IMG/VR virus record: IMGVR_UViG_3300029841_000009
Coordinates: 4,544 to 68,543 of that record
Strand: one strand, 5' to 3'
Length of the DNA stretch: 64,000 bases
Source of the DNA: a virus
Taxonomy: Duplodnaviria; Heunggongvirae; Uroviricota; Caudoviricetes
In this document: in pieces, positions 47,354 through 64,000 of the stretch
Position numbering within the stretch: the stretch's first letter is position 1
Layout: each line of letters starts with the position of its first letter
Position numbers and translations under genes: made by a program
The notes under the pieces: model-generated
What the model saw: the letters and a program-made list of their open reading frames with translations, nothing else
Database searches by the model: none
What the model was told of the DNA's origin: nothing

Positions 47354-47737
47354 TTATGCAGATGGATTTTGTTGTGCGGTGTTAAGGAATATCCCAACCT
47401 TCCGGCAAGCCAGATATACATCGGCAATCTTTGCTGATTCAGGAAGGATAACCGCATGTGCATTGAACATTCCGGTCAGCCATGCTGTTCCAACTTGCGC
47501 TGAATCAGTCGCATCAATACTGTGTTGAGCGATACAATACGGTTCTTTTGCCACCCCCTCACCAGAGAGATTTATTGGTGCTACAGTGACAACATTTGTT
47601 GTCTGATCAATACTGACAAAAGCAAGCAACTCACCTCGATTTACTTTACCGCTGGCAAGTTTAATACTTGTTGTAATTGCTGGCATACCACCAGAAATAA
47701 TCAGATTATCTGGTTCAAATGAAAAAGACTCTCGCAT
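47354..47737 (-). CDS. Head decoration protein (lambda gpD-like)
   Basis: 127 aa between protease and capsid genes. Confidence 0.65.
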   Translation of the reverse strand: MRESFSFEPDNLIISGGMPAITTSIKLASGKVNRGELLAFVSIDQTTNVVTVAPINLSGEGVAKEPYCIAQHSIDATDSAQVGTAWLTGMFNAHAVILPESAKIADVYLACRKVGIFLNTAQQNPSA

Positions 47738-47746
47738 AAACTCACC

Positions 47747-48835: not shown

Positions 48836-50378
48836 TTACCTCAGAAACAGGAGGCGTAATCAGCCCCAACTCACGGCGAGCATTCTCTTCTCTGCCACAA
48901 ATTTGTGCGGTTTCTTCCCAGTTAAGACCTGACATTTCAGCCGCTTCCTTTTCACGGGTAGAGAATGTTTCCTCAACACGCAGTTTTGCAGCTTTGACTT
49001 CTTTAAGGGGATCTAATTGGCCTTGTGATGGGCCATACCATTGAGCGCCACTCCATGCAGCGCGATATTCAGGCCCATAAAAAAAACCAGGGGCAATAAC
49101 ACGACCTTTAGCAACGGCTTCGGCCAACCATTCCTCATAGATCGGTTGGCAAAATGACTGAACCATCCAGTCACGTCGCATACGGAACATTTTCCAGGCT
49201 TCAAGTAATGCGGCCCTGCTTGCGCTATAACTTGCTGTAAAATGCTTTACCAAGAGTTCGTAAGGGAGTTCTAAAGCAGCCCCAATTTGACGGCATATGG
49301 CGACAACAAAACCATCAAATGCCGTATTTGGTCGCCCGGGATTTGCTGTATCTATCGACTCACCTTCACCCAAACTTACTATGGAGCCATTCCCCATTTC
49401 TTGGGTGTTATCATCATGGTTATCGATCTGCTCGTACTGAGGGATACCCGATTCACCGACTGGTCCATCAGGAGCGTCTGTTTTAATAAAGACAGTAAAC
49501 ATCCCTGACACAACCGCAGCAACCAATTCAGCATCGGTGTATCGTCCTAACTGCTTCAATGCTTCAATAACAGGAGCAAGGACAGGAACGCCACGACGTT
49601 GCCCAGGCCTTTCAAAATCCTGCATGACATGCAGAATATTTCTTCTTCCTGTTTTACTCCCATATGCGGGAATACGTTCCCACTTGCGGGTTACAAAACC
49701 AGAAGTCCCGGCTGGGTGATGTTTTGCAACCCAGTACGCCACAGGCTCGCTAAATTCACCAACCTCTACGCCACCGTAAAGATTTGGTATAAAACGATCC
49801 TCTGGATTGCAAACACGATCACCTTCAATTAAATAGACGCACAAATCATATATAACACCCTTACGCTTAATAACTGGTAGCGCAGCAAATATATCGCCAG
49901 ATGTTAACGCAGATATTTGGACCAATGATTGCAATTGTCCAAAAGTACACATTCTTGATGCATCACAATTTGGAGAATCAGCCCATAATCTAAACTCACG
50001 CTCAACATGCTTTTCCCATGCTCGCGCTTCTTCCTGCGTCATCCCCAAGAAATCGGCATCAATGTTCGCATTTAGTTTTAAACCGGAACCAACAACGTTT
50101 GTCCTGATAGTTTTTATTGCGCCAACCGATAGCGGGTTTCCCATGAAGAGATCACGAGAACGCTCACGCAATTTATCTATATTTTTAACAATATCATCAT
50201 CAGGAGAACCAGCTTTACTAAACCAACCCCTTAATGATTTTTTATGAGTGCTTGCACCATGACGTGAATATCCAAGGTTATTAATACCTTCAAGTGCTTC
50301 TAACCGTTTTCTTGCCAAAGCTCGATTTAATGCCCTCTGAGGTGAAAACGGCGCAATAACTCGATCAAGAATATTCAT
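48804..50378 (-). CDS. Portal protein (lambda gpB-like)
   Basis: 524 aa between the W-like gene and protease; lambda B is 533 aa. Confidence 0.8.
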   Translation of the reverse strand: MNILDRVIAPFSPQRALNRALARKRLEALEGINNLGYSRHGASTHKKSLRGWFSKAGSPDDDIVKNIDKLRERSRDLFMGNPLSVGAIKTIRTNVVGSGLKLNANIDADFLGMTQEEARAWEKHVEREFRLWADSPNCDASRMCTFGQLQSLVQISALTSGDIFAALPVIKRKGVIYDLCVYLIEGDRVCNPEDRFIPNLYGGVEVGEFSEPVAYWVAKHHPAGTSGFVTRKWERIPAYGSKTGRRNILHVMQDFERPGQRRGVPVLAPVIEALKQLGRYTDAELVAAVVSGMFTVFIKTDAPDGPVGESGIPQYEQIDNHDDNTQEMGNGSIVSLGEGESIDTANPGRPNTAFDGFVVAICRQIGAALELPYELLVKHFTASYSASRAALLEAWKMFRMRRDWMVQSFCQPIYEEWLAEAVAKGRVIAPGFFYGPEYRAAWSGAQWYGPSQGQLDPLKEVKAAKLRVEETFSTREKEAAEMSGLNWEETAQICGREENARRELGLITPPVSEVNEQNMETDDA

Positions 50379-50614
50379 AAATCTCTTATCACCACTCGTT
50401 TAATTCGTGGGCCTCGGCGTATACCTGCTGATAATCTTTCTACTTCATTACGCCAGTAATCCATCTCTTTTCTGACTTCTGATAAATCCGCACGAGTTAA
50501 CTGCCGCGTACCAAATTTATATGACTGACCGCCAATAGCAATAGCGCGATATGCTTCCCGCCAGACAGATAACATCTCTCTGGCTTCAGTCAGAGAAAAT
50601 GCTTCATTGTTCAT
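50375..50614 (-). CDS. Head-tail joining protein W-like
   Basis: 79 aa between TerL and portal, as lambda gpW. Confidence 0.6.
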   Translation of the reverse strand: MNNEAFSLTEAREMLSVWREAYRAIAIGGQSYKFGTRQLTRADLSEVRKEMDYWRNEVERLSAGIRRGPRIKRVVIRDL

Positions 50615-50625
50615 TTATATTTCCT

Positions 50626-52482
50626 CTATATGGTTACGCCTTTACTTATAACTCTACGGCGTCTTCTACGTATACCTGACGAGTTCTGCACATACACATT
50701 ACCTCGCATTTCCTGTTCGGCAAGCCAGTTAAAATTAGGGTTCAGAATTTCCATCGCGGCAGTTGCATAGTTACGGCAATCAAGAGGCTCGTTACGCTCG
50801 TAGACTTTCACCCACTTTTCTTTTGTCTGCCCATTTTTATATTCAAATATTTTCTTCTCTGATAATAATCCTTTAAAGTATTCGGTATCATATCCTCTGT
50901 CAGAATCTAATGGGAAATGCATATAACCAGGACCAGGATCATGTAGTTTAATTCTTGCCATGATGGTCCCTTTACCATCATCAACCCCCAAATTAAACAA
51001 CATAGCACCCACACGGTTATTATTACTTGGCTTTCCTATAAATGGTAAACCTACCCCACCACGCCCCCTGATAGAGTATATTCGCCTTGATTCTCTCGGC
51101 TTAGTAAAGCGATATACCTCTGTCGTAAAATGCCCACCAGAGTCAATACAAACGGAAGAAATCTGTAATTTTCGACCGTCACGGAATGACCAGCTACGGA
51201 GTAAGTATTCATCAAGTTGTTTCCAGACAACATCTTGTGCGGGATCACCTGGGAATATTTTATATTCTATCCCCCATGACTCCTTACCTTTTCCCCAACC
51301 GACCAATTCACAAACTAAATACGTGTCCTGTACGTCAACACCAGCACTTAACAATAAAACATCATCTGGTAAAAACTCTTCAAACCTTATTCTGCGTTGC
51401 AACAAGTATTCAGGATCGATATCGTCTTTAGCATCCTCTTTCCATGGCTCACCCAGCTTAAGGTTAATAAACTCCATTAATCCATTTTTATCGCGGTTTC
51501 TGGTTGCTTCCGTAAATTCTTCAACCAGCTCTGACAATGCAACCCACGGGGAGTAAAGACTGTTAATATGAAAACCAACAATACCTTTAACTCCAGTATG
51601 TTCAGCTATCCATACCCCCTTCGCCAACCAATCAACGTCTGGTTTACCAGATCCGCGCATAATCCCGCCGCACTCACAGCACTCATATCTGGCCGTTTCC
51701 GGTAACGCCTCACCTGAATCGCTCTTATCCCATCTGACTTGCGACCATTTCATCACCTGCATGGTGCCACAACATGGGCAAGGAACATGGTAGTAACGCT
51801 GATCGGAGAGCTTAAACCACTTGTGGATTTTGCTCGTTTCCTCCAAAACAGGAGTAGAAACAAAAACTTTCTTACGATTATGAAAGTTGGTAGTACGCTG
51901 AATACCTAGTTTTAGTGGGTCGCCCTCCTGCGTCACACCGTAACGATCAATCTCATCAGCTAACAGTATTCGAATTGGCCTGGATGCAAGACCTGCTGGG
52001 GAATTAGCACCAACAAGTGCTATATATCCACCAGCGTAATGCTTCATACGTATAGTCGTGCTGGACTTTTTGGCTGCACCGCGCCCCTCTTTCCCTTCAT
52101 GCAGCTTGTGTTTCAAACCAGGGGAATATTTGAACGTCGGATCAATACGCTCTTTTGAAAAAGCCTCAGCCGCCTCTACCGTTGGATAAATCATCAACTG
52201 AGGAGATGGCTCCTGATCTGCAAAGTAACCCATAACATTTAGCTGTAATTCGGATTTACCAATTTGCGAGCTACATTGCATCACTACTGTTTCTGTATCA
52301 GCGTCACCAATAACATCCATTGGTTCACGCAAATATGGCACTCGGCTTGTACGCCACGGCCCTGGCTCTGGAGACGTTCCCGGCGCTACATGACGATACT
52401 TATCAGCCCATTCGGAAACAGTTAGCCGTGATTTAGGGCGAAGCGCACGGAAAAAAGCGGTGCTCCATACTGTTTCGCCCAT
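50626..52482 (-). CDS. Terminase large subunit (GpA-type)
   Basis: 618 aa with Walker-A-like QCSSQIGKSE; Cys-rich segments VPCPCCG and CCECGG; lambda gpA-like size. Confidence 0.85.
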   Translation of the reverse strand: MGETVWSTAFFRALRPKSRLTVSEWADKYRHVAPGTSPEPGPWRTSRVPYLREPMDVIGDADTETVVMQCSSQIGKSELQLNVMGYFADQEPSPQLMIYPTVEAAEAFSKERIDPTFKYSPGLKHKLHEGKEGRGAAKKSSTTIRMKHYAGGYIALVGANSPAGLASRPIRILLADEIDRYGVTQEGDPLKLGIQRTTNFHNRKKVFVSTPVLEETSKIHKWFKLSDQRYYHVPCPCCGTMQVMKWSQVRWDKSDSGEALPETARYECCECGGIMRGSGKPDVDWLAKGVWIAEHTGVKGIVGFHINSLYSPWVALSELVEEFTEATRNRDKNGLMEFINLKLGEPWKEDAKDDIDPEYLLQRRIRFEEFLPDDVLLLSAGVDVQDTYLVCELVGWGKGKESWGIEYKIFPGDPAQDVVWKQLDEYLLRSWSFRDGRKLQISSVCIDSGGHFTTEVYRFTKPRESRRIYSIRGRGGVGLPFIGKPSNNNRVGAMLFNLGVDDGKGTIMARIKLHDPGPGYMHFPLDSDRGYDTEYFKGLLSEKKIFEYKNGQTKEKWVKVYERNEPLDCRNYATAAMEILNPNFNWLAEQEMRGNVYVQNSSGIRRRRRRVISKGVTI

Positions 52483-52487
52483 GAGGT

Positions 52488-53048
52488 TTATTCTTCCTGC
52501 TTAATAAATCGGGATTCCTGGAGCGCCTGAAGCGCAAAATTAATCTCGTCTTCAATAATGCGTTCGATCTCCCTGGCTGTTTTGCCTTCACAACGGGGAG
52601 CTGCTCTTGGAGCAATACTAAATAAGCGGCTACGCAATTCATTAGCTGCCAGAAATGCATCATCCCTGACCGCATCTTTAGCGATGAGAGAGCCTTCCTT
52701 TTCTTCAAATTCAAGGCGTTTCAGCTTTGCCTGATAAATTTTTTCTGCGGTCTTAGCCTTGTTGAATTGCACCGCAACACCGGAAGTACCACCAGCTAAT
52801 CCGGCATCATCAGCGGGTAACTCTGGTTGTTCCGAAGATATCCCATGCCCTCTTTTTCCATTTTCAGCAGATACCTCACGACCAACCTGTCGGCTCGCTT
52901 CATAAGCCGCACTGGCTTTATCAAAATCCAGCTTGCCGCTTTTCAGCACTGGAATGCGACCGGAACGACAGAGCTTCGTAACCATTGCCGGAGAAATACC
53001 TTTCCGGCGAGCAAACTCTGACTTACTGACGATGGCCATTACTTGCAA
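52488..53048 (-). CDS. Terminase small subunit (HTH-containing; start possibly 53039)
   Basis: N-terminal HTH (SKSEFARRKGISPAMVTKLCRSGRIP); directly upstream of TerL. Confidence 0.55.
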   Translation of the reverse strand: MQVMAIVSKSEFARRKGISPAMVTKLCRSGRIPVLKSGKLDFDKASAAYEASRQVGREVSAENGKRGHGISSEQPELPADDAGLAGGTSGVAVQFNKAKTAEKIYQAKLKRLEFEEKEGSLIAKDAVRDDAFLAANELRSRLFSIAPRAAPRCEGKTAREIERIIEDEINFALQALQESRFIKQEE

Positions 53049-53629
53049 CCATTAGCAAGATACTGAACAAATCCCTCATGCGTTTCATGCGCGTCGTGGT
53101 ACTGACGATAAACATCCAGCAACAATGCAATTTCCATATCCGTCGCGGGAATACGTTCTTTATCAATAGCCAGGTACTTAATTTGAACAACAGGGGAAGA
53201 ATTATCGTCTTCTTCCTGCGGCTGTTCATCGCTTAACATTTCGTCAAGCTCTGCATCATTAAACCCAAGCAGATCAATATCAAAATCATCATCCATTAAC
53301 TCTTTGACTTCTTCGGCCAGAAGCTGCATATCCCAGCCAGCATTTAAGGCCAGCTTGTTATCTGCAATCCTGTAAGCCTTCTTCTGTTTTTCAGAAAGGT
53401 TACTCAACCGAATCGCCGGAACTTTATCCATTTCCAGAATTTCGGCTGCTGCAAGCCGACCATGCCCCGCAATCAGTTCATTCTTTTCATCGATCAGCAC
53501 AGGATTAGTGAAACCGAACTCACGGATACTGTTCACCAACTGTTCAACCTGCTCATCTGAATGAGTCCGTGAATTTTTGGCGTATCTGAGCAGCTTACCG
53601 ACTGGTAAATATTCGATTTTTAGAGCCAT
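53039..53629 (-). CDS. ParB-like nuclease domain protein
   Basis: ParB/Srx N-domain motif LIAGHGRLAAA; paralog of 56296-56919. Confidence 0.65.
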   Translation of the reverse strand: MALKIEYLPVGKLLRYAKNSRTHSDEQVEQLVNSIREFGFTNPVLIDEKNELIAGHGRLAAAEILEMDKVPAIRLSNLSEKQKKAYRIADNKLALNAGWDMQLLAEEVKELMDDDFDIDLLGFNDAELDEMLSDEQPQEEDDNSSPVVQIKYLAIDKERIPATDMEIALLLDVYRQYHDAHETHEGFVQYLANGCK

Positions 53630-53639
53630 TTTTTAACCG

Positions 53640-54000
53640 CCATAACACAACAGGTTAAAGAAAACTGTTTAACTTATTGATACTAAAAGAGAAAAATGAC
53701 GATCTTTTTACTCATAAAAAATCACACAAACCAGCATAATCATCTGATTTTATTAAGTTTTTATAAGTAAAAAGGATCTTGAGATGGTGTTTTGGTTAAA
53801 AGATTGGATGTATTTGCATGATTTATAACGATTTTTATCAGAACAACATCACATTGGTTAAAGATCTGCGCGTATCTTGATGATCTAAAAGAAAATTTTC
53901 TACTTTCTTTTTACCAGCACAAATACAGCAAAAAATCACGTTTTCCCGATATTTTTCAATGAGATGAGTAAATTTCTTTTACCGCAACTTTTAACCTAAC
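53640..54000. repeat. AT-rich region with direct repeats TGGTTAAA(A)GAT (candidate cos/pac or late-promoter region)
   Basis: GGTTAAAG at 53652, 53794, 53856 and inverted TTTAACC at 53989; GATCTTGA repeated. Confidence 0.35.
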
Positions 54001-54186
54001 TTTTTTCACGTTTAGCTAGCCGAACATCGGGGTTCGAATGACCCGCATCCAACGCTTTTGTCCAGAAGGACCCAATTCTGCCGGACGATGAAACGATGCT
54101 CGTGCACCCCCACAGACAGCCAGCGAGCGACGCTACAGAACACAGTGAATACACTCTGCATAACAACACCATCAACCACACGATGA

Positions 54187-54906
54187 TTAACGAGAGAAGG
54201 TCTTGGAAAGAATGTCATCAATAGCCTTTGTGACTTCATCAGCAAACGCATCCTCACCAGCACGCAGCGCCACGCCATGCCAATCAAGACGCTGCGAATA
54301 GTTAGGTTGCTGGATAAACGTAAGGATCAACGTAGGACGCCGCCCAACGCGCTGCCAGACGCCTGGTTGAAGCGGGTTACTTGTACCAGGTCGAACAACA
54401 AAAAACTCCGTAGGCTTGCCCTGACGGCGATTTTGATGCGCATCTCGCTGAACTCTTAGGCCAGATAAGACCTGCTGTAATTGCCCCCGCGAAATATTCC
54501 CGTATTTGTCCAGCTTTGCGCCGGGACCAGGAGCAATCTGCCAGCCGTTAGGCAAATATCCACCAGCCCTTAGCGCCCCTTCTGAGCGTTTGTACTGTCG
54601 TTGGCCACCTTCGATTTGCGGAGTCAACGTTACAGGGGCTGGCGTTCCTCCCCATTCACGAGCATACACAATGGCTGTAGGATCACTCTTCTTTGCGGCC
54701 AAAACGTAAGTAGAGTTCTGAATCCACGGCGTGGGCCTGTCAAATACCCGATTAATTTCATTCTTAATCGCAGCCTGAGAAGCCTTTGCCGTTCTGGTTG
54801 CCGCAAGCGCCATTGCGAACGGCAATTCGCGTTCTTCAAGGCGCTGGAGTTGTCGTTGAATATCCTGAGAAGAAAAATCCATCTTTATCTCAATTCTGTC
54901 AGCCAC
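54187..54906 (-). CDS. Hypothetical protein
   Basis: 239-aa ORF between the ParB-methyltransferase gene and the AT-rich region. Confidence 0.4.
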   Translation of the reverse strand: MADRIEIKMDFSSQDIQRQLQRLEERELPFAMALAATRTAKASQAAIKNEINRVFDRPTPWIQNSTYVLAAKKSDPTAIVYAREWGGTPAPVTLTPQIEGGQRQYKRSEGALRAGGYLPNGWQIAPGPGAKLDKYGNISRGQLQQVLSGLRVQRDAHQNRRQGKPTEFFVVRPGTSNPLQPGVWQRVGRRPTLILTFIQQPNYSQRLDWHGVALRAGEDAFADEVTKAIDDILSKTFSR

Positions 54907-54922
54907 CAGCGCCTCCTACACA

Positions 54923-56302
54923 CTACTTAATCAACGGCCGGAAAGCCGCCAGCACATCATCAGATCGTCCGATTGTTGAACCACCAGGCAACGGCAACTC
55001 AAACTCAAAACGAACAGCTTTCTCCAGACTCGCCCAACTAAGGGAATCATCGTTAATGACGTGCAAATACCAGCTCTTACAGTTGAATATTGACCGCTTA
55101 ATCCTGAAACCATGTACACGACACAACTGCTTCACTTCCTCATCAGAGTGAAACTTCTGGTAAAACCAGTGCCCCTTCCGGTACAACGCGGTAAAACCGT
55201 CATGATCAATAAAATAAAGCCGGCTTTTGGAACTCGCCGCTTGTGTTTGCTTCAGGACTGTTTCCAGTTCTCCACGGCTACGGCCAGAAAAGAATATTGA
55301 CCCACCAGCTTTACACAGGCCTTTCAGAACCGTCAGAACGGACCATTCAGCCTCGACACTATCGACCGAGTTCAAAACGCTATCGCAAATCACGTAGTCG
55401 TAACGCCCTCGCGTTTTTAAGTCGTCCACCAGCGTATCAATCATCCGGTTTGTTGCGGCCCTATCCAGAGTGTTTCCAGCGCCCTTACGGCGGAAAAGCT
55501 CGAGATCATGCAGGTTATATCCCTTTGCCCTGAGCATTCGCGCGTAGTCTCCCTGCCCCGAACCAAAATCAATTCCTCTTGGCGTCTTGGCAATGATCGG
55601 GAGGATCAACGACTCATACAGATTTGATTTCAGGCTGCCACCATTACGCAACCGCATAAGCTGCGCATACGTCTGGATGTATGTTGTTTTCTCCAGATGA
55701 GAATACTCAAATACACCATAAGTTTTATTCAGATAACTTTGGTATTTTTCCTTCTCAACATCAGGGATCACAAACACCGTTAGCGGTGTGCGCGTCATTT
55801 TCGCTGCTAATGCATACTGAGCACAGTGAATAACCTCACCAGACTGAGTAGCAACACAACCACCCCACGGACCATACTTGATAACCAGTTCCGCTATGTT
55901 CTTTCGAACATATGCCATTTTCGCGCGCATATTGCCTGAGATCTGGCTTGCCGATACCTGAACAAAACCATGCTTATCTTCCAGACCGGACACCCTGCAA
56001 CGCTCATCTCCGCTATCAAAATCCGTTCCGTTATGCAGTTGGTTAAACCGTACTTCGTCGTATACCGTCGTTTCACAGGGCAACACATACACCGCAGCAC
56101 GCGTTATTCCCAACTTACGTAGCGCCTTCGTCCTTTGGTGTCCCGCCACCAGCAAATCGCCGCGCACTATCAATGGCTTCACAAGCCCCAGCTCCCTGAC
56201 GCTTTCCGCCAGCCTCGCAAGATCATCCTCACCGATAAAACGCGGGTTATATTCCGCGCCGCGTAGGTGCGTTATGTCGTAATTGAGGTGAAGCATCAGC
56301 AC
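54923..56302 (-). CDS. ParB-like N-domain fused to class I SAM-dependent methyltransferase
   Basis: N-terminal ParB/Srx motif LVAGHQRTKALRKLG; C-terminal motif I IDFGSGQGDYARML and post-I DYVICDSVLN. Confidence 0.65.
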   Translation of the reverse strand: MLMLHLNYDITHLRGAEYNPRFIGEDDLARLAESVRELGLVKPLIVRGDLLVAGHQRTKALRKLGITRAAVYVLPCETTVYDEVRFNQLHNGTDFDSGDERCRVSGLEDKHGFVQVSASQISGNMRAKMAYVRKNIAELVIKYGPWGGCVATQSGEVIHCAQYALAAKMTRTPLTVFVIPDVEKEKYQSYLNKTYGVFEYSHLEKTTYIQTYAQLMRLRNGGSLKSNLYESLILPIIAKTPRGIDFGSGQGDYARMLRAKGYNLHDLELFRRKGAGNTLDRAATNRMIDTLVDDLKTRGRYDYVICDSVLNSVDSVEAEWSVLTVLKGLCKAGGSIFFSGRSRGELETVLKQTQAASSKSRLYFIDHDGFTALYRKGHWFYQKFHSDEEVKQLCRVHGFRIKRSIFNCKSWYLHVINDDSLSWASLEKAVRFEFELPLPGGSTIGRSDDVLAAFRPLIK

Positions 56303-56919
56303 ACCTCCCCAGCCAGCAATGCGGATACAAATCCGATATAGCTGCCATTATCATCAACATAACGAGACACCGCGCAGTCAAAACGATCCGCTTCCTCATC
56401 CGTTGCCGGGATTTTATGACCTCCAAATGACAGGTACTGAACTTTTACGCCTGATTTGGCCTCATCCTTCTCAAATGGGATATCCATACCCTCTGTGTCA
56501 TCGTAGACTGCCGCACTCAATAAGTTATCCAGTTCGCGCTGAGTAAAACCAATTGAGTCCAGAGCAAAATCATCGGCCGCAAGATCTGCAAGCTCCGCGC
56601 TTAACAACTCTTCATCCCAACCAGCATTCAGCGGAATACGGTTGTCGGCCAGACGATATGCCTTCTTCTGATTCTCCGTTAGCCCAGCCAGAACAATGCA
56701 GGGAACATCATCCATCCCCAACTGAGTGGCCGCAGCAATTCGACCATGACCAGCAATTACAACGTTGTTCTCGTCTATCAGGATCGGATTAGTCCATCCG
56801 TACTCCTGTATGCTGGCAACAATCTGATCTACCTGCTCCACGGAGTGTGTGCGAGCGTTCTTTTCATAACCAATCAACACAGAAAGTGGTAAAGAAACCA
56901 CATTAAGATGTTTTGTCAT
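56296..56919 (-). CDS. ParB-like nuclease domain protein (paralog)
   Basis: VIAGHGRIAAA motif; shares architecture and the C-terminal IPATD segment with 53039-53629. Confidence 0.65.
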   Translation of the reverse strand: MTKHLNVVSLPLSVLIGYEKNARTHSVEQVDQIVASIQEYGWTNPILIDENNVVIAGHGRIAAATQLGMDDVPCIVLAGLTENQKKAYRLADNRIPLNAGWDEELLSAELADLAADDFALDSIGFTQRELDNLLSAAVYDDTEGMDIPFEKDEAKSGVKVQYLSFGGHKIPATDEEADRFDCAVSRYVDDNGSYIGFVSALLAGEVC

Positions 56920-57153
56920 GCCGTTTATCCGCTAAAATCCCCTCGCTTGTGCAAGCAAGTGGGCCTCGGTTTGTATCCACGGCACCCTGTGGGTATGAAT
57001 GACTGTCGTCAGGTCGCAACTGACGGCGGTCGCCCACCTTCCAGTAATAAAAAAGCCACCAGCATTAACTCCACAGCGAGCAGGAGTTAATGAGGCAGCT
57101 TTGGTTTGCGCATTATCGCAGCCCCTGATTAGCACAAGAGCTGCTGTAATGCG

Positions 57154-57564
57154 TTACGCAGGGATCAAACAGATGTGGCCGTTATTTACCTCAATACGGG
57201 AATATTCCGGCTTACCATCCACGATTCCGGTAATGACAAGTTCGCCATCAGGCGACCATTCTTCTTTGTCGTCTTCAAGTACCGCGCCTTCTGGCAAATC
57301 AATACAGGCAAAAACAGGGCAGCCAGGATGACGTTTATCCTCCATCGCAATCAGCATCGACTCACCGAACCACTCTGTGGTAGCACGGCCATCAGCCGCC
57401 TGATAGTGAATCAGATACTGGTTTTCGCCATTTGCATACTGAGCACGGGCTTGAACTTCTCCCCACTCTTCACTGATACGCATTGTTACCAGTTGGGATA
57501 ATTCAAACTTAAACGGAACAGACTCTGCACCAATGGCAATCGGTTTATCTTCTTTCTTTTCCAT
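57154..57564 (-). CDS. Hypothetical protein (start at MEKKEDKP)
   Basis: ORF-track start at 57633 lies upstream of a terminator; internal ATG at 57564 has AGGTGA SD. Confidence 0.4.
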   Translation of the reverse strand: MEKKEDKPIAIGAESVPFKFELSQLVTMRISEEWGEVQARAQYANGENQYLIHYQAADGRATTEWFGESMLIAMEDKRHPGCPVFACIDLPEGAVLEDDKEEWSPDGELVITGIVDGKPEYSRIEVNNGHICLIPA

Positions 57565-57581
57565 AACATCACCTGAAAATA

Positions 57582-57606
57582 AAAAGCCCCGCGACACCGC
57601 GAGGCT
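57582..57606 (-). terminator. Rho-independent terminator after the small membrane-peptide pair
   Basis: GCCTCGCG-gtgt-CGCGGGGC hairpin with T5 on the minus strand. Confidence 0.5.
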
Positions 57607-57607
57607 G

Positions 57608-57766
57608 TAAGAGTTACTTTCGATATAAATCAAGGCGCATTTGCTCCCGCTTAAGCCGAAAAGCCCTCTGCGCCACTAAGATGCGCCACAGGACACCAGC
57701 GATAACCACCAGCGAGATACAAAAACACACGGCCACAACCATCAGAAAAATGCCAACACCATTCAT
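57608..57766 (-). CDS. Small hydrophobic peptide (52 aa), toxin-like
   Basis: Manual translation: MNGVGIFLMVVAVCFCISLVVIAGVLWRILVAQRAFRLKREQMRLDLYRK; ATG overlaps the upstream stop (ATGA); below the ORF-track size cutoff. Confidence 0.4.
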
Positions 57767-57975
57767 GAAACTATCCATTCTTCAATGAATATCTCCAGTA
57801 ATGTCAAGAGATACGCCGTCCCCAGCGCGGTTCCTACCGATATAGCTAAGACAAACCTCAAAGATAACGAGGTGTCTTTCGCTTTTCTCCAGACGTAAGC
57901 GCCAGCTAGAAATACCAACAAATCTCTTATTGGAAGCGGAAACCAGAACAAATCACTCGGCATAAGCACGATCAT
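57763..57975 (-). CDS. Small membrane protein (70 aa, two hydrophobic segments)
   Basis: LLVFLAGAYVW and FVLAISVGTALGTAYLLTLL segments; coupled to the 52-aa peptide. Confidence 0.4.
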   Translation of the reverse strand: MIVLMPSDLFWFPLPIRDLLVFLAGAYVWRKAKDTSLSLRFVLAISVGTALGTAYLLTLLEIFIEEWIVS

Positions 57976-58252
57976 CTTCCGCTGCTGATTTACATGCCGC
58001 AGTTACTGATATATTGATAACCGGTGCGCTAATCGTGATGGACGACGCTGTCGGTTGACGCGATATAACTGAACGATGGCTATCAATGAAGTCCACAATC
58101 TCATTCAGGCACTCTTTAGCTGCCTCATCGTGACTTTTTCCGTATGCTTCATGGAGGACTTTCATCCTCATCATTGCTCCGTCACATATAGTCGAAAGCG
58201 CGTAAAGCACATCACTAACCGCCATTTCTTTTTTGGTGCTTGTCGAAGGCAT
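57953..58252 (-). CDS. Hypothetical protein
   Basis: 99-aa ORF. Confidence 0.35.
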   Translation of the reverse strand: MPSTSTKKEMAVSDVLYALSTICDGAMMRMKVLHEAYGKSHDEAAKECLNEIVDFIDSHRSVISRQPTASSITISAPVINISVTAACKSAAEDDRAYAE

Positions 58253-58326
58253 CCCATGTTCTCCTTTGTCTGGATGTAAAAAAGCCCCGGCAATTGCCGA
58301 GGCTCGTTGTTCGTTATCGTTACGGT

Positions 58327-58527
58327 TTAATGCTCGCGTCGTCCGGCGACAACTTCGGATTTGTATTTCAGGTCGCCCAGCAAGAATTGCAGTTTAAGCA
58401 TCTTTGCCGCCGTGTAGTTCCCTGATTCCACAACCTCTTTCATGAGGTCATAAACGGCCGCTACATCATCAGCCAGGAACTCTTTGCGTTGCTGCTCAGT
58501 CGCACGTTTGAAGGAAATACGCATCAC
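58327..58527 (-). CDS. Hypothetical protein
   Basis: 66-aa ORF coupled to the 58524 gene. Confidence 0.35.
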   Translation of the reverse strand: MMRISFKRATEQQRKEFLADDVAAVYDLMKEVVESGNYTAAKMLKLQFLLGDLKYKSEVVAGRREH

Positions 58528-58793
58528 TCATCATCTCCTGCCGCACATACAACCTCACAAAAAAAATCAGCAGAATGTTTCTCCTTGAACGAATGACGCT
58601 CAAAACCGCACTCAATATCAGGCGCAAAAACATCCACCACATACGGTCTTTCAGAATGTTTGTTTTCCCAACGATAAACCGTAGTGACGTTGAAATGTTT
58701 TAACGCTTCACGGAACTCAACGCTGCCAGTCAGGTTTTTTGAGGTCAGGTATTGCAGGAGGTTTTTTACTACTTCACGGTCTTGTACTTTCAT
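58524..58793 (-). CDS. Hypothetical protein driven by cassette copy 3
   Basis: 89-aa ORF immediately downstream of the conserved promoter-leader cassette. Confidence 0.45.
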   Translation of the reverse strand: MKVQDREVVKNLLQYLTSKNLTGSVEFREALKHFNVTTVYRWENKHSERPYVVDVFAPDIECGFERHSFKEKHSADFFCEVVCAAGDDE

Positions 58794-58911
58794 CGGGTTA
58801 TCTCCGGTTTAACCAGGGCGGGTATCGCTCGGTTTCGGGTATAACCATAGGAAATTTTTTCCCACCTGTAAAGCACTTTTATATAAATCTATAATTATAT
58901 AATTCTATACC
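58794..58911 (-). promoter_or_regulatory. Conserved promoter-leader cassette, copy 3
   Basis: -35 TTTACA (58872-58867), 17 bp, -10 TATGGT (58849-58844), leader with GGAG SD; AT-rich iteron 58877-58911. Confidence 0.5.
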
Positions 58912-59492
58912 ACTTGCCAGAGAGCATCATGCAACTGGATACTTCCATTGCACTGGTTGCCCCAGCCATGCCAACCATCAGGTAAATCACCGCGAGCAAA
59001 CAGCTCAATACGAGGAACATCACCTAACAGCCTTACCAGCTTGTCACGAACCACATCAGGCTTCCGAGAATGCTCCAGACGAGGCGATGTAAACGACTGA
59101 ATGATCCCCGCATCAAGGCGGGTCGGCAATTTGCCTTTTACCGCAAACAAGCAATCTTCACTGTTTGCACGAGTCATATGCCCCATCCCCATCACCAGCT
59201 TATCTGGTTGTCGGCTACCACATTTGTTCCATGTGAAGCCCTTCATGGTCATAAGCCTGAATCCCCATGCTTTCACCACCAGCAACGCTTCTTCTGGCTG
59301 AGTCGGAACCCACCACATGGCCAACAAACACGATTCAGGATTAGCAAGCTGCCAGACAGGAATACGAGCAATATCCTCAGCTTTCATCGTTGGATACTTA
59401 AAACCAGCTCCACGATTCCCATCCTTACACTTATCTTTGTATTCCCAGGGGGGATCTGCATAAATCAGATTAAACAATGCAATTGCCTCCAT
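58905..59492 (-). CDS. MT-A70 family DNA adenine methyltransferase
   Basis: N-terminal LIYADPPWEY (DPPW catalytic motif); 195 aa. Confidence 0.75.
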   Translation of the reverse strand: MEAIALFNLIYADPPWEYKDKCKDGNRGAGFKYPTMKAEDIARIPVWQLANPESCLLAMWWVPTQPEEALLVVKAWGFRLMTMKGFTWNKCGSRQPDKLVMGMGHMTRANSEDCLFAVKGKLPTRLDAGIIQSFTSPRLEHSRKPDVVRDKLVRLLGDVPRIELFARGDLPDGWHGWGNQCNGSIQLHDALWQVV

Positions 59493-59800
59493 GTTAGTTG
59501 TGCCTCCGGCGCTTATCTCCGGCAGTCATAACGCTGGCCAGCTCTACAGCAGACGCAACGAAAAGGGCACTAACCAGACTGATTAATGCCCTTGCCTGTT
59601 GTGTGCCGGATATCGCCCGACAACGCTGTTTTGGTAACACGGCTACAGTTCCGTGCCGCTCCAGCTTTTACCCCTTTGCGGATAACAGGCCCTGCCTGTA
59701 ACTTAGCCCCACGTTCGCCCGAAATGCGCACCAGGCACGCATAAAGATGAGCACGAAGGAAGTAACTCCACCGCGCTTATCTTTATGTGTGAGAGTGAAT

Positions 59801-59876
59801 TGGTGGCCCCTACCGGATTTGAACCGATGACCGTGCGATTATGAGTCGCCTGCTCTAACCACTGAGCTAAGGGGCC
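59801..59876 (-). tRNA. tRNA with CAU anticodon (tRNA-Ile2-like, or Met)
   Basis: Minus-strand read GGCCCCTTAGCTCAGTGGTTAGAGCAGGCGACTCATAATCGC...GGTTCAAATCC...GGGGCCACCA; close to my recollection of E. coli ileX in acceptor, D and anticodon arms. Confidence 0.8.
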
Positions 59877-59883
59877 ATATTTG

Positions 59884-59972
59884 ATCTGTTTGTCTGGTGT
59901 GGCGCCGCGCACGAAAATCCCAGCCAATAAATTCAGGATTTTTGGGCGCGGCGGCATATCAGACAAACATGG
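59884..59972. repeat. Large imperfect palindrome upstream of the tRNA
   Basis: Arms CTGTTTGTCTGG..GGCGCCGCGC and GCGCGGCGGC..CAGACAAACATGG around an inner inverted repeat GAAAATCC...GGATTTT. Confidence 0.45.
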
Positions 59973-60012
59973 TTGATGCGTGCGCCCATGAGAAAAGCGC
60001 ATAGAATGTTGT

Positions 60013-60047
60013 AACTATATATTTATATAATTATAGAAATATATATT
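60013..60047. repeat. AT-rich iteron downstream of the spanin genes
   Basis: AACTATATATTTATATAATTATAGAAATATATATT, same family as the parA-flanking iterons. Confidence 0.45.
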
Positions 60048-60255
60048 ACTTGGGGCAGTTGATTTCCCATGCCCTGTTATGAGCCAGAATATCTTTCTTT
60101 GTCTGGCGGTCCATAACATCGATATCGTGATCAGTCAGGTAGATGGGCTTTACCCAATCACAGGCGGTATCAACCACCACCGGGACGCTTCCACGACTCC
60201 CGCAGCTCGCGATCAACATCGTCATCAGCCATATGGTTAACACTCTGCTGTACAT
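60046..60255 (-). CDS. o-spanin (outer-membrane lipoprotein, Rz1-like), overlapped arrangement
   Basis: 69 aa with signal peptide and lipobox IASC; start lies inside the i-spanin gene in another frame. Confidence 0.55.
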   Translation of the reverse strand: MYSRVLTIWLMTMLIASCGSRGSVPVVVDTACDWVKPIYLTDHDIDVMDRQTKKDILAHNRAWEINCPK

Positions 60256-60448
60256 TGCCCACCTCTTTTGTCACTTCTATACGCCGCTCCGCAGTGGCTT
60301 TTACGGCGGCTGCATTCTCATTAATGCGCTGCTTTTCAGCTTCATCTTCGGCCTTTTCTCGCCCCTTCATACGACCAAAACCAAACGCACCGAATGCAAC
60401 CAATATAACGGTGCCGATAAATGACAAAACGGCTTTCAAACCAGTCAT
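60170..60448 (-). CDS. i-spanin (Rz-like) candidate
   Basis: 92 aa; N-terminal TM (AVLSFIGTVILVAFGAFGFG) then charged helical region; follows the endolysin. Confidence 0.5.
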   Translation of the reverse strand: MTGLKAVLSFIGTVILVAFGAFGFGRMKGREKAEDEAEKQRINENAAAVKATAERRIEVTKEVGNVQQSVNHMADDDVDRELRESWKRPGGG

Positions 60449-60987
60449 ACCACCACTCGCTCTTTCATCCAGCCATAGACAAACGACTCATTTGCTTCGC
60501 GTTTCTCCGCCAGGTCCAGATAACGGTCGCCCTGCGTACAGTTCAGGGCCGTCAGCATTACCCGTTCGCCGTCTTTTCCCCGATTCCCAAGATAAGCACG
60601 TAATGCCGCAATGGTGCGCGGGCCGATTCGCCCATCCACATCCATATCTGGATACAACTTCCCGCCACGGTTGAAAACATTCAGCCAACGTTGAAGCATC
60701 TTCGTAGCCACAGTCGGCCCCATGTTGACGCCCGTATCGCACATCTCAGCCGCAATATCAGGGGAAAATTGCGCCACCTGGTCAAAACGAGGCCCATACC
60801 AATAATCACCTTCAAGAATCATCAGAGCCTGTTCTCGCGTCAGATCTCGCATATCGCCACGGTATCCGTGAGCACGGGCAGTATTCTGAGTAATGCCCCA
60901 CTTTGTTGGGCCTCCCTTGTCGTCAGGGTGATCCACATAGCCGCCCTCTTTTCCAAGAATGCTGTTAAAAATCTCATCTTTGGTCAT
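60445..60987 (-). CDS. Endolysin (GH108-type lysozyme with peptidoglycan-binding domain)
   Basis: N-terminal ILGKEGGYVDHPDDKGGPTKWGIT motif characteristic of GH108 endolysins. Confidence 0.75.
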   Translation of the reverse strand: MTKDEIFNSILGKEGGYVDHPDDKGGPTKWGITQNTARAHGYRGDMRDLTREQALMILEGDYWYGPRFDQVAQFSPDIAAEMCDTGVNMGPTVATKMLQRWLNVFNRGGKLYPDMDVDGRIGPRTIAALRAYLGNRGKDGERVMLTALNCTQGDRYLDLAEKREANESFVYGWMKERVVV

Positions 60988-61270
60988 GATTAAACCCTAA
61001 TGCGTCAACTATCCGCGCCAGATTGCCCCTGAAATACAGAACAACGATGCAGATAATCAGATTTCCAATAACCACCAGCCAGTGGGATTCTTGATAAAGA
61101 CCGAACACATAACGGAAGGGAACATTGGCGTATACAATGACGTAGATATAAGCCAGAAAGGAAACAAATGGACGATGCCTGGAGTCTTTCCGTCGATAAA
61201 GCATCAGCGCCATTACTATTACTGTGCAAAGCACCGCATTAATCAGTGCTGACGGGTCACTGCTTACCAT
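60974..61270 (-). CDS. Membrane protein (antiholin/holin candidate; start at MVSSDPS)
   Basis: About 98 aa with 2-3 predicted TM helices, between the holin candidate and endolysin. Confidence 0.4.
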   Translation of the reverse strand: MVSSDPSALINAVLCTVIVMALMLYRRKDSRHRPFVSFLAYIYVIVYANVPFRYVFGLYQESHWLVVIGNLIICIVVLYFRGNLARIVDALGFNHDQR

Positions 61271-61652
61271 TTGAACCCCCTCCACGTAAGCGGGAAAGCA
61301 TTCCAAAGATGCTACCGAGATCCTGGCTGTTTACGAACGTGAGGATTTTAATGGTCAATGCAGCCACAATAACCGCACCAAGCGCATCCAGAGGACGATC
61401 GTTGTAGCTGGTCCATTTGGCAAGAAATGAGCCAACTAACGGCGCTCCAATCACTCCAACAATGAACGATGTAAAGAAATAGCCAATCAGCTTGAGACGG
61501 CTAATATTCACCGCTGTAGCAACATAGAAAACAGCGCCAGCAAATGCCCCGAATACAACGCCGTAATCAATACCAGTTGCAATACCAAAAACGCTGGCAC
61601 CCATCAGGCCACCAGCAGCAACGGCCGTACCGGAAATTGGTTCTGCTGACAT
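61257..61652 (-). CDS. Holin candidate (start at MSAEPISG)
   Basis: About 131 aa, multiple Gly/Ala-rich TM helices and charged C-terminus; first gene of the lysis cassette with GAGGA SD. Confidence 0.45.
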   Translation of the reverse strand: MSAEPISGTAVAAGGLMGASVFGIATGIDYGVVFGAFAGAVFYVATAVNISRLKLIGYFFTSFIVGVIGAPLVGSFLAKWTSYNDRPLDALGAVIVAALTIKILTFVNSQDLGSIFGMLSRLRGGGSNGKQ

Positions 61653-61665
61653 TGAAATCCTCGTT

Positions 61666-61694
61666 AAAAAAAAGCCCCGCCGAAAAGGCAGGGC
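61666..61694 (-). terminator. Rho-independent terminator immediately upstream of the lysis cassette (tR'-like)
   Basis: GCCCTGCC-ttttc-GGCGGGGC hairpin followed by T8 on the minus strand, ending about 12 nt before the holin SD. Confidence 0.55.
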
Positions 61695-61840
61695 TTCATA
61701 AAGCAACAAATTACGCGGTAATCGCTTAACGCAGTTTTACTACGTTAAATGAAACACTACACCCAGTTACCACCTAAAACAAGGTTTCTTCATAAAAAAA
61801 CCTTCAAAATGTGGTTGATCGATCAATAAAAAAACAATAC

Positions 61841-62158
61841 TCACAGTAGTGCAGAAAAGAATAGCGGCTTAACTGCTTTCCTCACCTCACTAGCGTACAT
61901 CCCCGCAGCTATCTCAGTTGTGAACAAACGCCCTCCAACTAGCCATGCAACAGGTGCAGATGCCAGGGATGCCAGTGCAATTTCATCTGTAGCAAGCTCT
62001 CTTTCAAGATATTCACGAAATCCGGGGTTAATAGTTACCGTATCCAACATTCTCTGGCGCGCTTCCTTACGTTCACGAATATGGGCAATCAATTGCTCTT
62101 TGGTAAAAGTAGCCATATCACTTTCCTTTCCCATGAAGCATAGCCGCGCGGCAGGCAT
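61841..62158 (-). CDS. Hypothetical protein (probable start at MATFTKEQ, 62116)
   Basis: Contains the LASLASAPVAWL motif shared with the 62118 gene. Confidence 0.35.
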   Translation of the reverse strand: MPAARLCFMGKESDMATFTKEQLIAHIRERKEARQRMLDTVTINPGFREYLERELATDEIALASLASAPVAWLVGGRLFTTEIAAGMYASEVRKAVKPLFFSALL

Positions 62159-62492
62159 TCCAGCCTCTCACCTCTGCAATAGCGGCAACAGCATCAACCG
62201 CGTACATGCTAAGAGGATTAGGCATTGGTTTTTCTTCCGGTACTACTGGCACTGGAGGGGTGGCGTAGAGTGGAACTCCTCCCCCTCCACCAGAAAATTC
62301 ATTGCGAGCGTTATACTCACGACCATCTGCGTCATCACGCATCCACGCCACCGGTTCTGCTTCCAGCGATGCAAGTGCAATTCGTGCCAGTTCTTCCGCT
62401 TCTTCTGCTGGCAGTACAACGTTGCTATCAGGTCCGTATGTTTCGCGCCACTGCTTGATTGTCAGCAGTCGCTCTTTGGTAATAGTGATCAT
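62118..62492 (-). CDS. Hypothetical protein
   Basis: 124-aa ORF with LASLEAEPVAWM motif. Confidence 0.35.
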   Translation of the reverse strand: MITITKERLLTIKQWRETYGPDSNVVLPAEEAEELARIALASLEAEPVAWMRDDADGREYNARNEFSGGGGGVPLYATPPVPVVPEEKPMPNPLSMYAVDAVAAIAEVRGWNACRAAMLHGKGK

Positions 62493-62848
62493 GCCGTATC
62501 CCCTTCTTGATATTTACCGTACCACCAACCATCAGCATTTTTTTCCAGCTCGATGAAAGCTTTTTTATGTCCTGAAGGTATAACCACATCCCCAAACTTT
62601 TTAGTTACTGAGAATGTCCCTCTGCTTGCACCAGACATCTTTGCACCCTTTTCATCCGAGGTTGGCATCACCCTGATCTGCCTGTTTTCCTCATCCAACT
62701 CAACGAAAATAAATCGACTGTTCGATCTGACATCAACTCCGATATAGCACTGCACAGATCCTGATTTTGAATATCTAACGGATATTCCTGCCGTGTCACG
62801 CTTGCGACCTCTGCCACCAGTTATGATTGATACAAAAGCCATACTCAT
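62489..62848 (-). CDS. Hypothetical protein
   Basis: 119-aa ORF coupled to neighbours. Confidence 0.35.
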   Translation of the reverse strand: MSMAFVSIITGGRGRKRDTAGISVRYSKSGSVQCYIGVDVRSNSRFIFVELDEENRQIRVMPTSDEKGAKMSGASRGTFSVTKKFGDVVIPSGHKKAFIELEKNADGWWYGKYQEGDTA

Positions 62849-63531
62849 TCCCCCTTCACGCCAATGCCAGCGGCGCGCTCGGCTTTACTTTGTTCCCAAA
62901 ACCACTTGTGAAGCTCCATAAGCTTTTCGTCAATCGGTGCATATTTGCGATTAAAGTAGGCCTGAGCATCTTTCTCAGATTCGTCCGGCAATTCGCCTGG
63001 GCCAAACAGTGTGTTATAAATCCATGCCAGTCCGCTCTTAGCGTCGCCAGTTGCCTGCCATTCGATAATCGCAGCCTGCATGACCAGAATGTTTTTCCCG
63101 ATTAACAGGTCCAGTTCTTTGTACCGGTTGCGGATGTATGCATTCTCGCTTTGTAATTTTGCGTTGCGCTTCTCTGCGGCTTCCAGCTCAACACGCAGCT
63201 TCCCTACCGTTAGCGCAATTTCCTCGTTCTCCTGGTCGCGTGATTTGATGTATTGCTGGTTTCTTTCCCGTTCATCCAGCAGCGCCTGCACTACTTCAGG
63301 GTTGAAAGCTGCGATATAACGAGCGTTGTTCTCTGCGTTTTTCTGTTCGTCGAATCCTGGCCAGTCGACAATATCTCCGTGATGATTATCACCTGGTGTG
63401 TGTACGGCGTACGTGCCGTATTTGCCCGGCGAAATAAATGCGACCCATTCACCCTGTGTTGCCTTTTCTGCCGCATCACGCAGTGCCTGATAGTCAATTT
63501 TGCTCATTGTGCCTCCTCGATTTCGTCCCAT
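62845..63531 (-). CDS. Ead/Ea22-like protein (probable start at MSKIDYQALRDAAEKA, 63507)
   Basis: Shares MS.I.YQALR.AAEKA and the coiled-coil core LLDERERNQQYIKSRDQENEEIALTVGKLRVELEAAE with 14253-14900. Confidence 0.5.
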   Translation of the reverse strand: MGRNRGGTMSKIDYQALRDAAEKATQGEWVAFISPGKYGTYAVHTPGDNHHGDIVDWPGFDEQKNAENNARYIAAFNPEVVQALLDERERNQQYIKSRDQENEEIALTVGKLRVELEAAEKRNAKLQSENAYIRNRYKELDLLIGKNILVMQAAIIEWQATGDAKSGLAWIYNTLFGPGELPDESEKDAQAYFNRKYAPIDEKLMELHKWFWEQSKAERAAGIGVKGE

Positions 63532-63737
63532 TCCACCCAGGCATTCTCTCCATCAGCATCGATTTCACCTTTGTGACCGCATTTGGAACAGACAGCCTCA
63601 TCACCCGCCCACAAAGAATCTTTGGTTACCGACCATCCTGTTACCTTGGCTTTGCCGTGCTGGCACTTAGGGCAATCATCAAGCCATTCGACTTCGACTG
63701 TTGAAGGACCAAATCCATGTTCAGTTCGGATGCTCAT
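63504..63737 (-). CDS. Small zinc-ribbon-like protein (start at MSIRTEHGF, 63737)
   Basis: Two CxxC pairs (CPKCQ, CSKCG); ATG overlaps the stop of the upstream Ead-like gene. Confidence 0.4.
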   Translation of the reverse strand: MSIRTEHGFGPSTVEVEWLDDCPKCQHGKAKVTGWSVTKDSLWAGDEAVCSKCGHKGEIDADGENAWVEWDEIEEAQ

Positions 63738-64000
63738 AACTGAACTCCTTTGCGAATCTGTTCCGCCCATTCTTCAAGGGATTTCTCCGCATATTCACCG
63801 GACAGGCCATCAATCGGGTACGGTTCATTAGCCAACTCTTCTTTCGCTGACAGAATCATGCGCGTAACGTCGAAAACTTCACGCAAAGACTTATTGATAA
63901 ATCCGTGATTGAACGCAGCAGCAAGACGGCTGGCGGTATAGTTAATCCCCTCGTTGCGTGCTTCCGCACGAATTTCAGCCAGAAAAGCATCGGTAGCTGG
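63734..64000 (-). CDS. Ead/Ea22-like protein, C-terminal part (gene runs off the right edge)
   Basis: Near-identical at DNA level to the 3' end of 15138-15764; stop TGA at 63734-63736. Confidence 0.5.
   Translation of the reverse strand, partial: PATDAFLAEIRAEARNEGINYTASRLAAAFNHGFINKSLREVFDVTRMILSAKEELANEPYPIDGLSGEYAEKSLEEWAEQIRKGVQL

Follow-up and report, generated by a model that had tools for sequence, protein, structure and literature searches.

The question raised by this locus is why two nearly identical segments of Ead/Ea22-family genes lie one plasmid length apart in a single viral contig. The DNA analyzed, referred to throughout as the window, comprises 64,000 nucleotides (positions 4,544 to 68,543 of the IMG/VR record IMGVR_UViG_3300029841_000009, assigned to the Caudoviricetes). 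A sequence-only reading had taken the segments for Ead/Ea22-like paralogs situated in the T7-like and the lambda-head parts of one composite genome, where they could serve as substrates for recombination. With high confidence, they are considered here to be two copies of one shared homology that flank one 48,596-bp unit of a circular phage-plasmid, situated in the accessory region of a phiV10-like prophage. They thus mark a homologous crossover that was made either in a cell or by an assembler, and they are not unrelated paralogs.

Repeats shared by the two loci

Self-BLAST of the window recovered two long matches, both in direct orientation. The larger pairs 15149-15404 with 63745-64000 on the same strand (97.27% identity over 256 bp, 7 mismatches, 0 gaps, E = 1e-120). 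The smaller pairs 14536-14657 with 63170-63291 (92.6% identity over 122 bp, E = 3e-45) and holds exact runs of 50 and 35 bp. Both matches had been called from the letters alone as near-identity of the 3' ~250 bp (63750-64000 to 15145-15410) and as a close match of 63170-63300 to 14545-14660; these coordinates were right to within 5-10 bp, and the self-comparison together with the PF13935 matches described below bore out the duplication of Ead/Ea22-family segments at two distant loci in the same orientation. All seven mismatches of the 256-bp repeat are confined to 15161-15267, and 15268-15404 is a 137-bp perfect match to 63864-64000. Further exact runs of 60, 50, 35, and 21 bp connect the left and right loci. 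Because the window itself ends at base 64000 (the equivalent of 15404), the larger match ends there too, and its full extent may exceed 256 bp. Three blocks of ~60 bp (14851-14912, 15689-15747, and 63458-63517) are also related, with 82-90% identity in direct orientation.

All genes at both loci are on the minus strand, and three complete ones exceed the gathering score (27 bits) of the Pfam family PF13935 (Ead_Ea22). Ead198 (15138..15734; 198 aa, GTG start) scores 44.3 bits over residues 2-120. Ead215 (14253..14900; 215 aa, 112.1 bits) belongs to the phiV10-like accessory region, and Ead220 (62845..63507; 220 aa, 120.9 bits) is the native Ead/Ea22-family gene of the plasmid. The left copy of the 256-bp repeat (R1, 15149..15404, minus strand) occupies the 3' part of Ead198 and encodes its C-terminal ~85 residues, outside the Pfam domain. 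The right copy (R2, 63745..64000, minus strand) occupies the 3' part of the Ead198 gene that belongs to the plasmid. The window edge cuts this gene (63734..64000+, minus strand), leaving the 3' 88 codons; only the C-terminal module is present, and full-length plasmid counterparts are recorded as PF13935 matches. The 122-bp match corresponds to a central coiled-coil motif common to Ead215, which holds the left copy (..LLDERERNQQYIKRRDQENEDIALTVGKLRVELEAAE..), and Ead220, which holds the right; both copies are on the minus strand. The ~60-bp blocks span the ribosome-binding site (RBS) and the first codons (MSEINYQALR...).

The flanking prophage and the insert

Nucleotide-level collinearity identifies bases 1 to ~15148 as an arm of a phiV10/epsilon15-like temperate podophage (Uetakevirus), with its tail, head, portal, tRNA-Arg, and terminase genes and an accessory region (DUF551, Ead215, and DUF7446) on the minus strand. 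The collinearity with members of that genus extends over 1-14912 at 97-99.7% identity, and the records of these relatives carry the Uetakevirus taxonomy line. The label “T7-like” was accordingly abandoned: the relatives at 97-99.7% identity are podophages of the phiV10/TL-2011b/O157 typing phage 9 type, no T7-like record occurred among the matches of 1-15 kb, and the strong matches were all to Uetakevirus or to temperate prophages (with integrase, repressor, and RecET). The closest relative found (L112) is an intact prophage on a 126-kb E. coli contig, 99.7% identical over 3649-14912. It is contiguous with the window through Ead215, and the two sequences part exactly where the conserved Ead start block lies (14912). 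Phages of the phiV10-like type match the window at 15137-15405/15411, where the repeat forms the 3' end of their “Eae-like” gene. Intact relatives have the repeat at the equivalent position, with DUF1064 and the replication genes after it.

The collinearity of 15149-64000 with ~48-kb circular plasmids covers a full turn plus 256 bp. The unit itself, linearised at the repeat, is 15149..63744 (48,596 bp). In the plasmid pCE-O153H30-B, for example, the collinearity starts at 45496, passes through the wrap point, and ends at 45751. Other collinear relatives are pPRO_A, KE136924.1 (99.96% identical to the window over 52845-64000), and Yersinia phage vB_YpM_39. A free metagenomic contig of 48,651 bp (L018) had 0 mismatches in every 1-kb bin compared (16-26 kb and 54-64 kb); the sole differences in the compared parts were seven single-nucleotide polymorphisms (SNPs) at 15161-15267, i.e. 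in the left repeat copy. As 48,651 equals 48,596 plus 55, L018 would be a circular contig with a 55-bp k-mer overlap.

The unit encodes an IncFII-type RepA replication initiator (30486..31466, minus strand; PF02387, 149.8 bits) and a Ref-family RecA-dependent nuclease (19093..19497, minus strand; PF16786, 44.7 bits), which is annotated in relatives as “Ref family recombination enhancement nuclease” and is a candidate for assisting recombination between short homologies. Pfam and Rfam searches also identified ParA, a CI-like repressor, and an ORF6N/Rha antirepressor behind isrK/C4 RNAs. Lambda-like head, contractile-tail, and lysis genes were assigned by synteny with annotated relatives. Because RepA, ParA, Ref, immunity, head, tail, and lysis genes occur together in the unit, 15149-63744 is, by its predicted gene content, a circular RepA/ParA phage-plasmid of the myovirus type. 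The earlier term “lambda-head part” needs correction, as this element is a complete ~48.6-kb circular phage-plasmid. Near-identical genomes have been deposited as phage isolates (vB_YpM_39), and relatives exist as circular plasmids in 71 closed E. coli genomes; the repA region was found there in 82 places, all of them plasmid-borne.

Geometry of the junction

For the following, the prophage is written A-repeat-B and the plasmid C-repeat-D. The distance between the repeat copies (63745 minus 15149) is 48,596 bp, which is one plasmid unit. The left copy begins exactly where plasmid homology begins (15149) and ends where most phiV10-like phages cease to match (15403-15411). It carries prophage-type SNPs at 15161-15267 and is identical to the free plasmids from 15268 on. 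The right copy has the plasmid allele up to base 64000 and follows the native plasmid neighbours, Ead220 and a 77-aa gene. The order in the window is thus prophage arm A, a repeat with the prophage allele in its first ~119 bp followed by the common tract, the whole plasmid, a repeat with the plasmid allele, and the window end. Such an arrangement has the features of Campbell-type integration: the insert lies between directly repeated copies of the shared homology, and it amounts to exactly one unit of the circular partner, with the homology as its point of permutation. A right copy of purely plasmid type is as expected for a crossover within 15268-15404.

At the gene level, Ead198 is a hybrid. 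The N-terminal two thirds of the protein are plasmid-type and the C-terminal tip has the prophage allele; in the DNA, the gene is plasmid-type along its whole length except for the last ~120 bp. Its stop codon is overlapped by the start of the first prophage-side gene, DUF7446 (14887..15141, minus strand; 84 aa, PF24233, 68 bits), which is absent from this position in plasmids that carry Ead198. On the C side of the right repeat, Ead198 has its native plasmid neighbour, a gene for a Cys-rich protein of 77 aa (63504..63737, minus strand).

These observations bear directly on the first reading, i.e. that two independent Ead/Ea22 paralogs in one composite genome are potential substrates only and have no relation to the joining of its parts. 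The dispersal of such segments is favorable to it: they are very widespread repeats, present in 2,690 of 5,426 closed E. coli genomes and in most of 80 viral contigs. However, the left copy coincides with the element boundary, the spacing equals the plasmid unit to the base, and the SNP type switches inside the repeat. Since these coincidences are unexpected for unrelated paralogs, the independent-paralog explanation is regarded as highly improbable. The idea that the repeats are substrates for recombination holds insofar as a 137-bp perfect tract suffices for it, but the left copy is more than a potential substrate. Likewise, the fusion of the two modules that had been predicted is already displayed by the sequence at the left copy; whether it arose in a cell or during assembly is weighed below.

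Several other accounts of the junction were rejected. Site-specific integration was discarded: synteny with annotated relatives gives no sign of an integrase in the window, and the crossover falls within ordinary homology. The left junction could have been a cassette variant of the plasmid (Ead198 followed by DUF7446), but this arrangement did not occur in any plasmid of PLSDB or of the closed genomes; in some plasmids, ASCH is followed directly by DUF7446, without Ead198. No promoter or terminator was found at the junction. The window contains 18 Chi sequences (GCTGGTGG; e.g. at 15527, 18003, and 20595), of which 18 are on the minus strand and 0 on the plus strand; they occur in both parts and are co-oriented with transcription. 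Chi was dismissed as the cause of the junction site: the nearest one, at 15527, is presumed from its orientation to act away from the repeat.

Origin of the junction

A crossover in vivo would account for the window as follows. One reciprocal homologous exchange inside the 137-bp identical tract (15268-15404), between the circular phage-plasmid and a resident prophage, would have integrated the former in the manner of Campbell. The product would read arm A, hybrid repeat, whole plasmid, hybrid repeat, and, beyond 64000, arm B with the replication, immunity, and int genes. A site-specific integrase for this site is encoded by neither element. Host RecA/RecBCD would be the likely catalysts; the plasmid Ref nuclease or a phiV10-type RecE/RecT might have assisted. 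Both hybrid genes would stay in frame and no gene would be destroyed, so the event should be reversible through the same repeats. That this single crossover took place in a cell is judged to be an evenly balanced proposition.

In its favor, exact runs of 137 and 60 bp provide ample homology, and recombination functions are available, namely Ref in the window and RecT/RecE in phiV10-like relatives. A genuine phiV10-like backbone lies to the left of 15149, and the native plasmid gene order is found on the C side of the right repeat. There is precedent as well. Integration of P1-like phage-plasmids next to resident prophages is on record and was left unexplained (PMC10879196), and relaxed homologous recombination builds the mosaics of temperate phages (PMC3945230, PMC2327257).

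Further support comes from an independent draft contig, L007 (GCA_958321215.1, CATTCA010000026.1, 55874-75508), which has the same hybrid Ead198/DUF7446 junction with another plasmid genotype and another prophage. Over 14424-16600 it agrees with the window at 99.9% identity, and it is the only other contig on which the exact hybrid Ead198 protein is on record. On its other side are DUF551, AntA, an integrase, and the chromosomal torS, i.e. a different prophage with int next to torS. Its prophage-type SNPs extend to 15405. From 15406 to ~21000, L007 and all plasmid genotypes are identical to the window, and the L007 genotype differs at 21-26 kb. A second junction was not found in L007, as that contig stops within the ORF6N/Rha gene, after 9.6 kb of plasmid-like sequence.

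Other candidates were set aside. “Phage PH444” (114.9 kb) was rejected as a chimera at the repeat, as an intact phiV10-like genome is present there. Two contigs from the same metagenome as L018 (L038 and L098) were rejected as the unfused phiV10-like partner. The plasmid pN10e (NZ_JBUBMA010000006.1, 57,418 bp; L028/L029) was likewise rejected as a phage fusion: what makes it longer is that structural genes are duplicated internally. It belongs to the same family, with a 100% identical repA, and the duplicated block runs from capsid to baseplate; the duplication may be either real or an artefact of long-read assembly.

The competing explanation is that the prophage and the circular plasmid were separate replicons, and that an assembler switched from one to the other inside the 137-bp tract, circled the plasmid once, and stopped at the fork. 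The following observations count against a fusion in vivo, and in part for such a chimera. The window stops inside the second repeat, and the junction from plasmid through repeat to arm B is beyond view. Exactly one plasmid unit with a terminal overlap is present; it equals the free plasmid genotype exactly, with no divergence after the fusion. The window end (15404 equivalent) falls within 2-8 bp of the usual point of divergence between phiV10-like phages and the plasmid, for which the chance with an arbitrary cut is estimated by us at ~17/48,596, or roughly 3e-4; this boundary is not universal, as one prophage (L027) is homologous to the plasmid up to 15536. An end at that position is typical of a short-read contig that halts at a graph fork; the source is therefore probably a draft assembly, in which the 137-bp exact repeat, longer than common k-mer sizes, could be misjoined. 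L007, the one further contig that has the junction, is a draft as well. The left junction was found in 0 of 5,426 closed E. coli genomes, and the repA region was chromosomal in 0 of the 71 closed genomes that carry it. A recombinant-specific 191-mer had no match in IMG/VR, JGI metagenomes, or the GTDB representative genomes.

Against a chimera, a 137-bp repeat is normally resolved correctly by read pairs or by 150-bp reads. A pure mis-join would be expected to break at both passes, whereas the contig resolves A to D and fails for C only. In the independent assembly L007, this hybrid gene recurs with another plasmid genotype and another outer context, and its prophage-type SNPs up to 15405 leave little room for shared k-mers, if its parent resembled the common phiV10-type alleles. 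An assembly chimera is thus taken to be a real possibility, on the doubtful side of even. If the plasmid was integrated in vivo, the fact that the repeat was resolved at the first pass while the contig stopped at the second suggests that free or tandem copies of the plasmid existed beside the integrated one.

The agreement of L007 with the window over 14424-16600 in two prophage backgrounds also admits a third account, in which the prophage possesses an older, inherited arm of several kb derived from the plasmid (Ead198, ASCH, DUF3560, etc.). That segment could then be a ready-made module that is spreading; the homology would be kilobases long, and the crossover, biological or in silico, would be located to the right of the repeat. 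With all plasmid genotypes and L007 identical from 15406 to ~21000, a crossover in that interval would leave no trace. Yet the order DUF7446, Ead198, and ASCH occurs in no closed genome and in no PLSDB plasmid, and the window end points to a fork directly behind the 256-bp repeat rather than kilobases further on. The plasmid part is also a complete single unit identical to L018, including the 21-26 kb region in which L007 differs. An inherited mosaic of this type is accordingly considered improbable.

Ead segments as possible sites of cassette exchange

Segments of this kind are widely dispersed. The matches to 14424-15404 in closed E. coli genomes occur in up to 9 places per genome. In most of the 80 IMG/VR contigs, including P1-like ones, the C-terminal repeat (R) is 94-99% conserved with differing flanks. 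Between Ead198 and the holin genes, the plasmids differ from one another: they have Ead220, Ead250, Ead196, PAPS reductase, an insertion sequence (IS) element, or DUF7446 without an Ead gene. The breakpoints between the window and its relatives lie at the Ead start block (L112, 14912), just past the central motif (L007, 14424), and at R (15149); their positions at Ead blocks support these blocks as recombination joints.

Excision through the second homology (14536-14657 / 63170-63291) would exchange accessory cassettes between prophage and plasmid. The geometry suggests that entry via R followed by exit via the 122-bp motif would set free a circle of 48,634 bp, with cassettes swapped between prophage and plasmid. 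In general form, the conserved Ead/Ea22 blocks (start block, central motif, and C-terminal R) would be docking sites in vivo for the reversible integration of phage-plasmids into resident prophages by homologous recombination, with reciprocal exchange of cassettes (e.g. DUF7446 for the 77-aa gene). This model is advanced tentatively and is considered unlikely. If true, it would explain both the hypervariable cassette zone by Ead198 and the unexplained integrations of phage-plasmids beside prophages.

The exact Ead220 protein was found on 46 contigs; all those listed are ~43-49 kb and plasmid-like, with the gene order ASCH-Ead198-77aa-Ead220. By contrast, an exact-protein look-up in a collection of ~15 billion proteins returned no match to Ead215 or to the long open-reading-frame form of Ead198. 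The DNA of Ead215 is 99.7% matched by the prophage L112 despite the absence of the exact protein; small differences make nearly every Ead allele unique.

Neighbouring genes and other features

In the left locus, Ead198 is preceded by an ASCH-annotated gene (15721..16419, minus strand; 232 aa). The name comes from the RefSeq annotation of plasmid homologues as ASCH-domain proteins; the gene itself has no Pfam match. Beyond Ead215, a 77-aa gene, the DUF551 gene (13649..14026), and a 112-aa gene lead toward the terminase small subunit (12507.., identified with Pfam), all on the minus strand. The phiV10-like part also contains a tRNA-Arg(TCT) at 10298-10374. In the right locus, the Cys-rich 77-aa gene had a weak rubredoxin-like match in the Pfam search, and past Ead220 are genes of 117, 124, and 105 aa, followed by holins and a GH108 endolysin, again on the minus strand.

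Three direct repeats of ~120 bp (18201-18327, 28211-28329, and 58781-58908) are 94-100% identical to each other. The first two are directly upstream of the minus-strand genes for DUF3560 (17146..18213) and for a 126-aa protein (27834..28214), and the third, by synteny with relatives, is upstream of an MT-A70 methylase gene. Each contains a sigma70-like TTTACA-17-TATGGT, a leader of ~50 nt, and an RBS. Related plasmids keep all three repeats in the corresponding positions, so the repeats probably serve three operons as a common promoter/leader.

Matches above the Rfam gathering score were obtained for ryfA (23350-23646, minus strand), isrK (24018-24091), and the C4 antisense RNA (24116-24203), which are just upstream of the ORF6N/Rha antirepressor gene (24445..25626); the region looks like an immunity module of the P1/P7-like immI type. 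A 43-bp imperfect palindrome (20750-20792) lies between the divergent genes 20239..20733 (minus strand) and 20908..21564 (plus strand, the CI-like repressor) and is a likely operator of the immunity switch of the phage-plasmid. The plasmid also carries a tRNA with the anticodon CAT (59801-59876), called tRNA-Met by ARAGORN and tRNA-Ile in the RefSeq homologue; it is probably of the lysidine-type Ile2.

Comparison with known systems

The classic cointegrates of the Campbell type include Hfr strains (high frequency of recombination), formed by F via shared IS elements, and the P1 plasmid prophage inserted in the chromosome via IS1 homology. As in those cases, the arrangement described here involves a circular replicon, one crossover, and direct repeats that flank a permuted insert of unit length, and it would be reversible. 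It differs in that the shared sequence is a phage accessory gene segment of at least 256 bp and not an IS element, in that the target is a prophage, and in that the far junction is outside the window.

Contigs of circular replicons with terminal overlaps, and chimeric contigs induced by repeats, are both familiar products of short-read assembly. The window resembles them in making one turn around a circle, ending inside the second copy of its start, and breaking at a repeat boundary. In contrast to them, the overlap here starts 15 kb into the sequence, after a different element, and its two copies differ by 7 SNPs.

The integrated P1-like phage-plasmids of Pfeifer and Rocha 2024 (PMC10879196) also keep their replication and partition genes and adjoin prophage genes. 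The element in the window, however, belongs to a ~48-kb group with an IncFII-type RepA that is related to vB_YpM_39 and to 48-kb plasmids of E. coli. In addition, the genomes were finished in that study (PMC10879196), whereas the present source is probably a draft, with a junction that can be read at the base level and that points to homologous recombination in an Ead-family gene.

With the mosaics of temperate phages (De Paepe et al. 2014, PMC3945230; Martinsohn et al. 2008, PMC2327257), the locus shares exchange in short conserved stretches between unrelated flanks, as well as partners that encode Rad52-like recombinases (here, RecT in phiV10-like phages). Those mosaics arise by double exchanges that replace segments among phages and defective prophages, whereas a single exchange would here join two complete replicons.

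Proteins of the Ea22 family combine a variable N-terminal part with a central coiled coil and a C-terminal domain that can be exchanged, and their genes are early, non-essential accessory genes; a pro-lysogenic function has been reported for the Ea22 proteins of lambda and of Shiga-toxin (Stx) phages (PMC8614690). Three genes in the window pass the threshold of that family. Unlike lambda ea22, which belongs to the pL-transcribed exo-xis block (orf60a, orf63, orf61, orf73, ea22), they are located outside an exo-xis region, between replication/ASCH genes and terminase or lysis genes, and the 256-bp repeat codes for a C-terminal module outside the Pfam domain.

Significance

The event in the window is of a known kind, i.e. 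either a cointegrate formed by homologous recombination or a repeat-induced chimeric contig, with new partners. If it is an artefact, then short, near-identical Ead/Ea22 segments, which are present in about half of the closed E. coli genomes, can chain a plasmid to a prophage in draft assemblies, and the case warns against taking the products for genuine “integrated phage-plasmids” or giant prophages.

A real fusion would be a natural example, at base resolution, of chromosomal entry by a phage-plasmid, with homologous recombination between it and a resident prophage taking place in an accessory gene common to both. It would supply a concrete cause for the integrations of phage-plasmids beside prophages that Pfeifer and Rocha reported as unexplained. 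The packaging and structural genes of the phiV10-like prophage would then be 48.6 kb away from its replication and immunity genes, and its inducibility would need the reverse crossover. It would also constitute a route by which accessory genes could pass between plasmid-borne and integrated phages.

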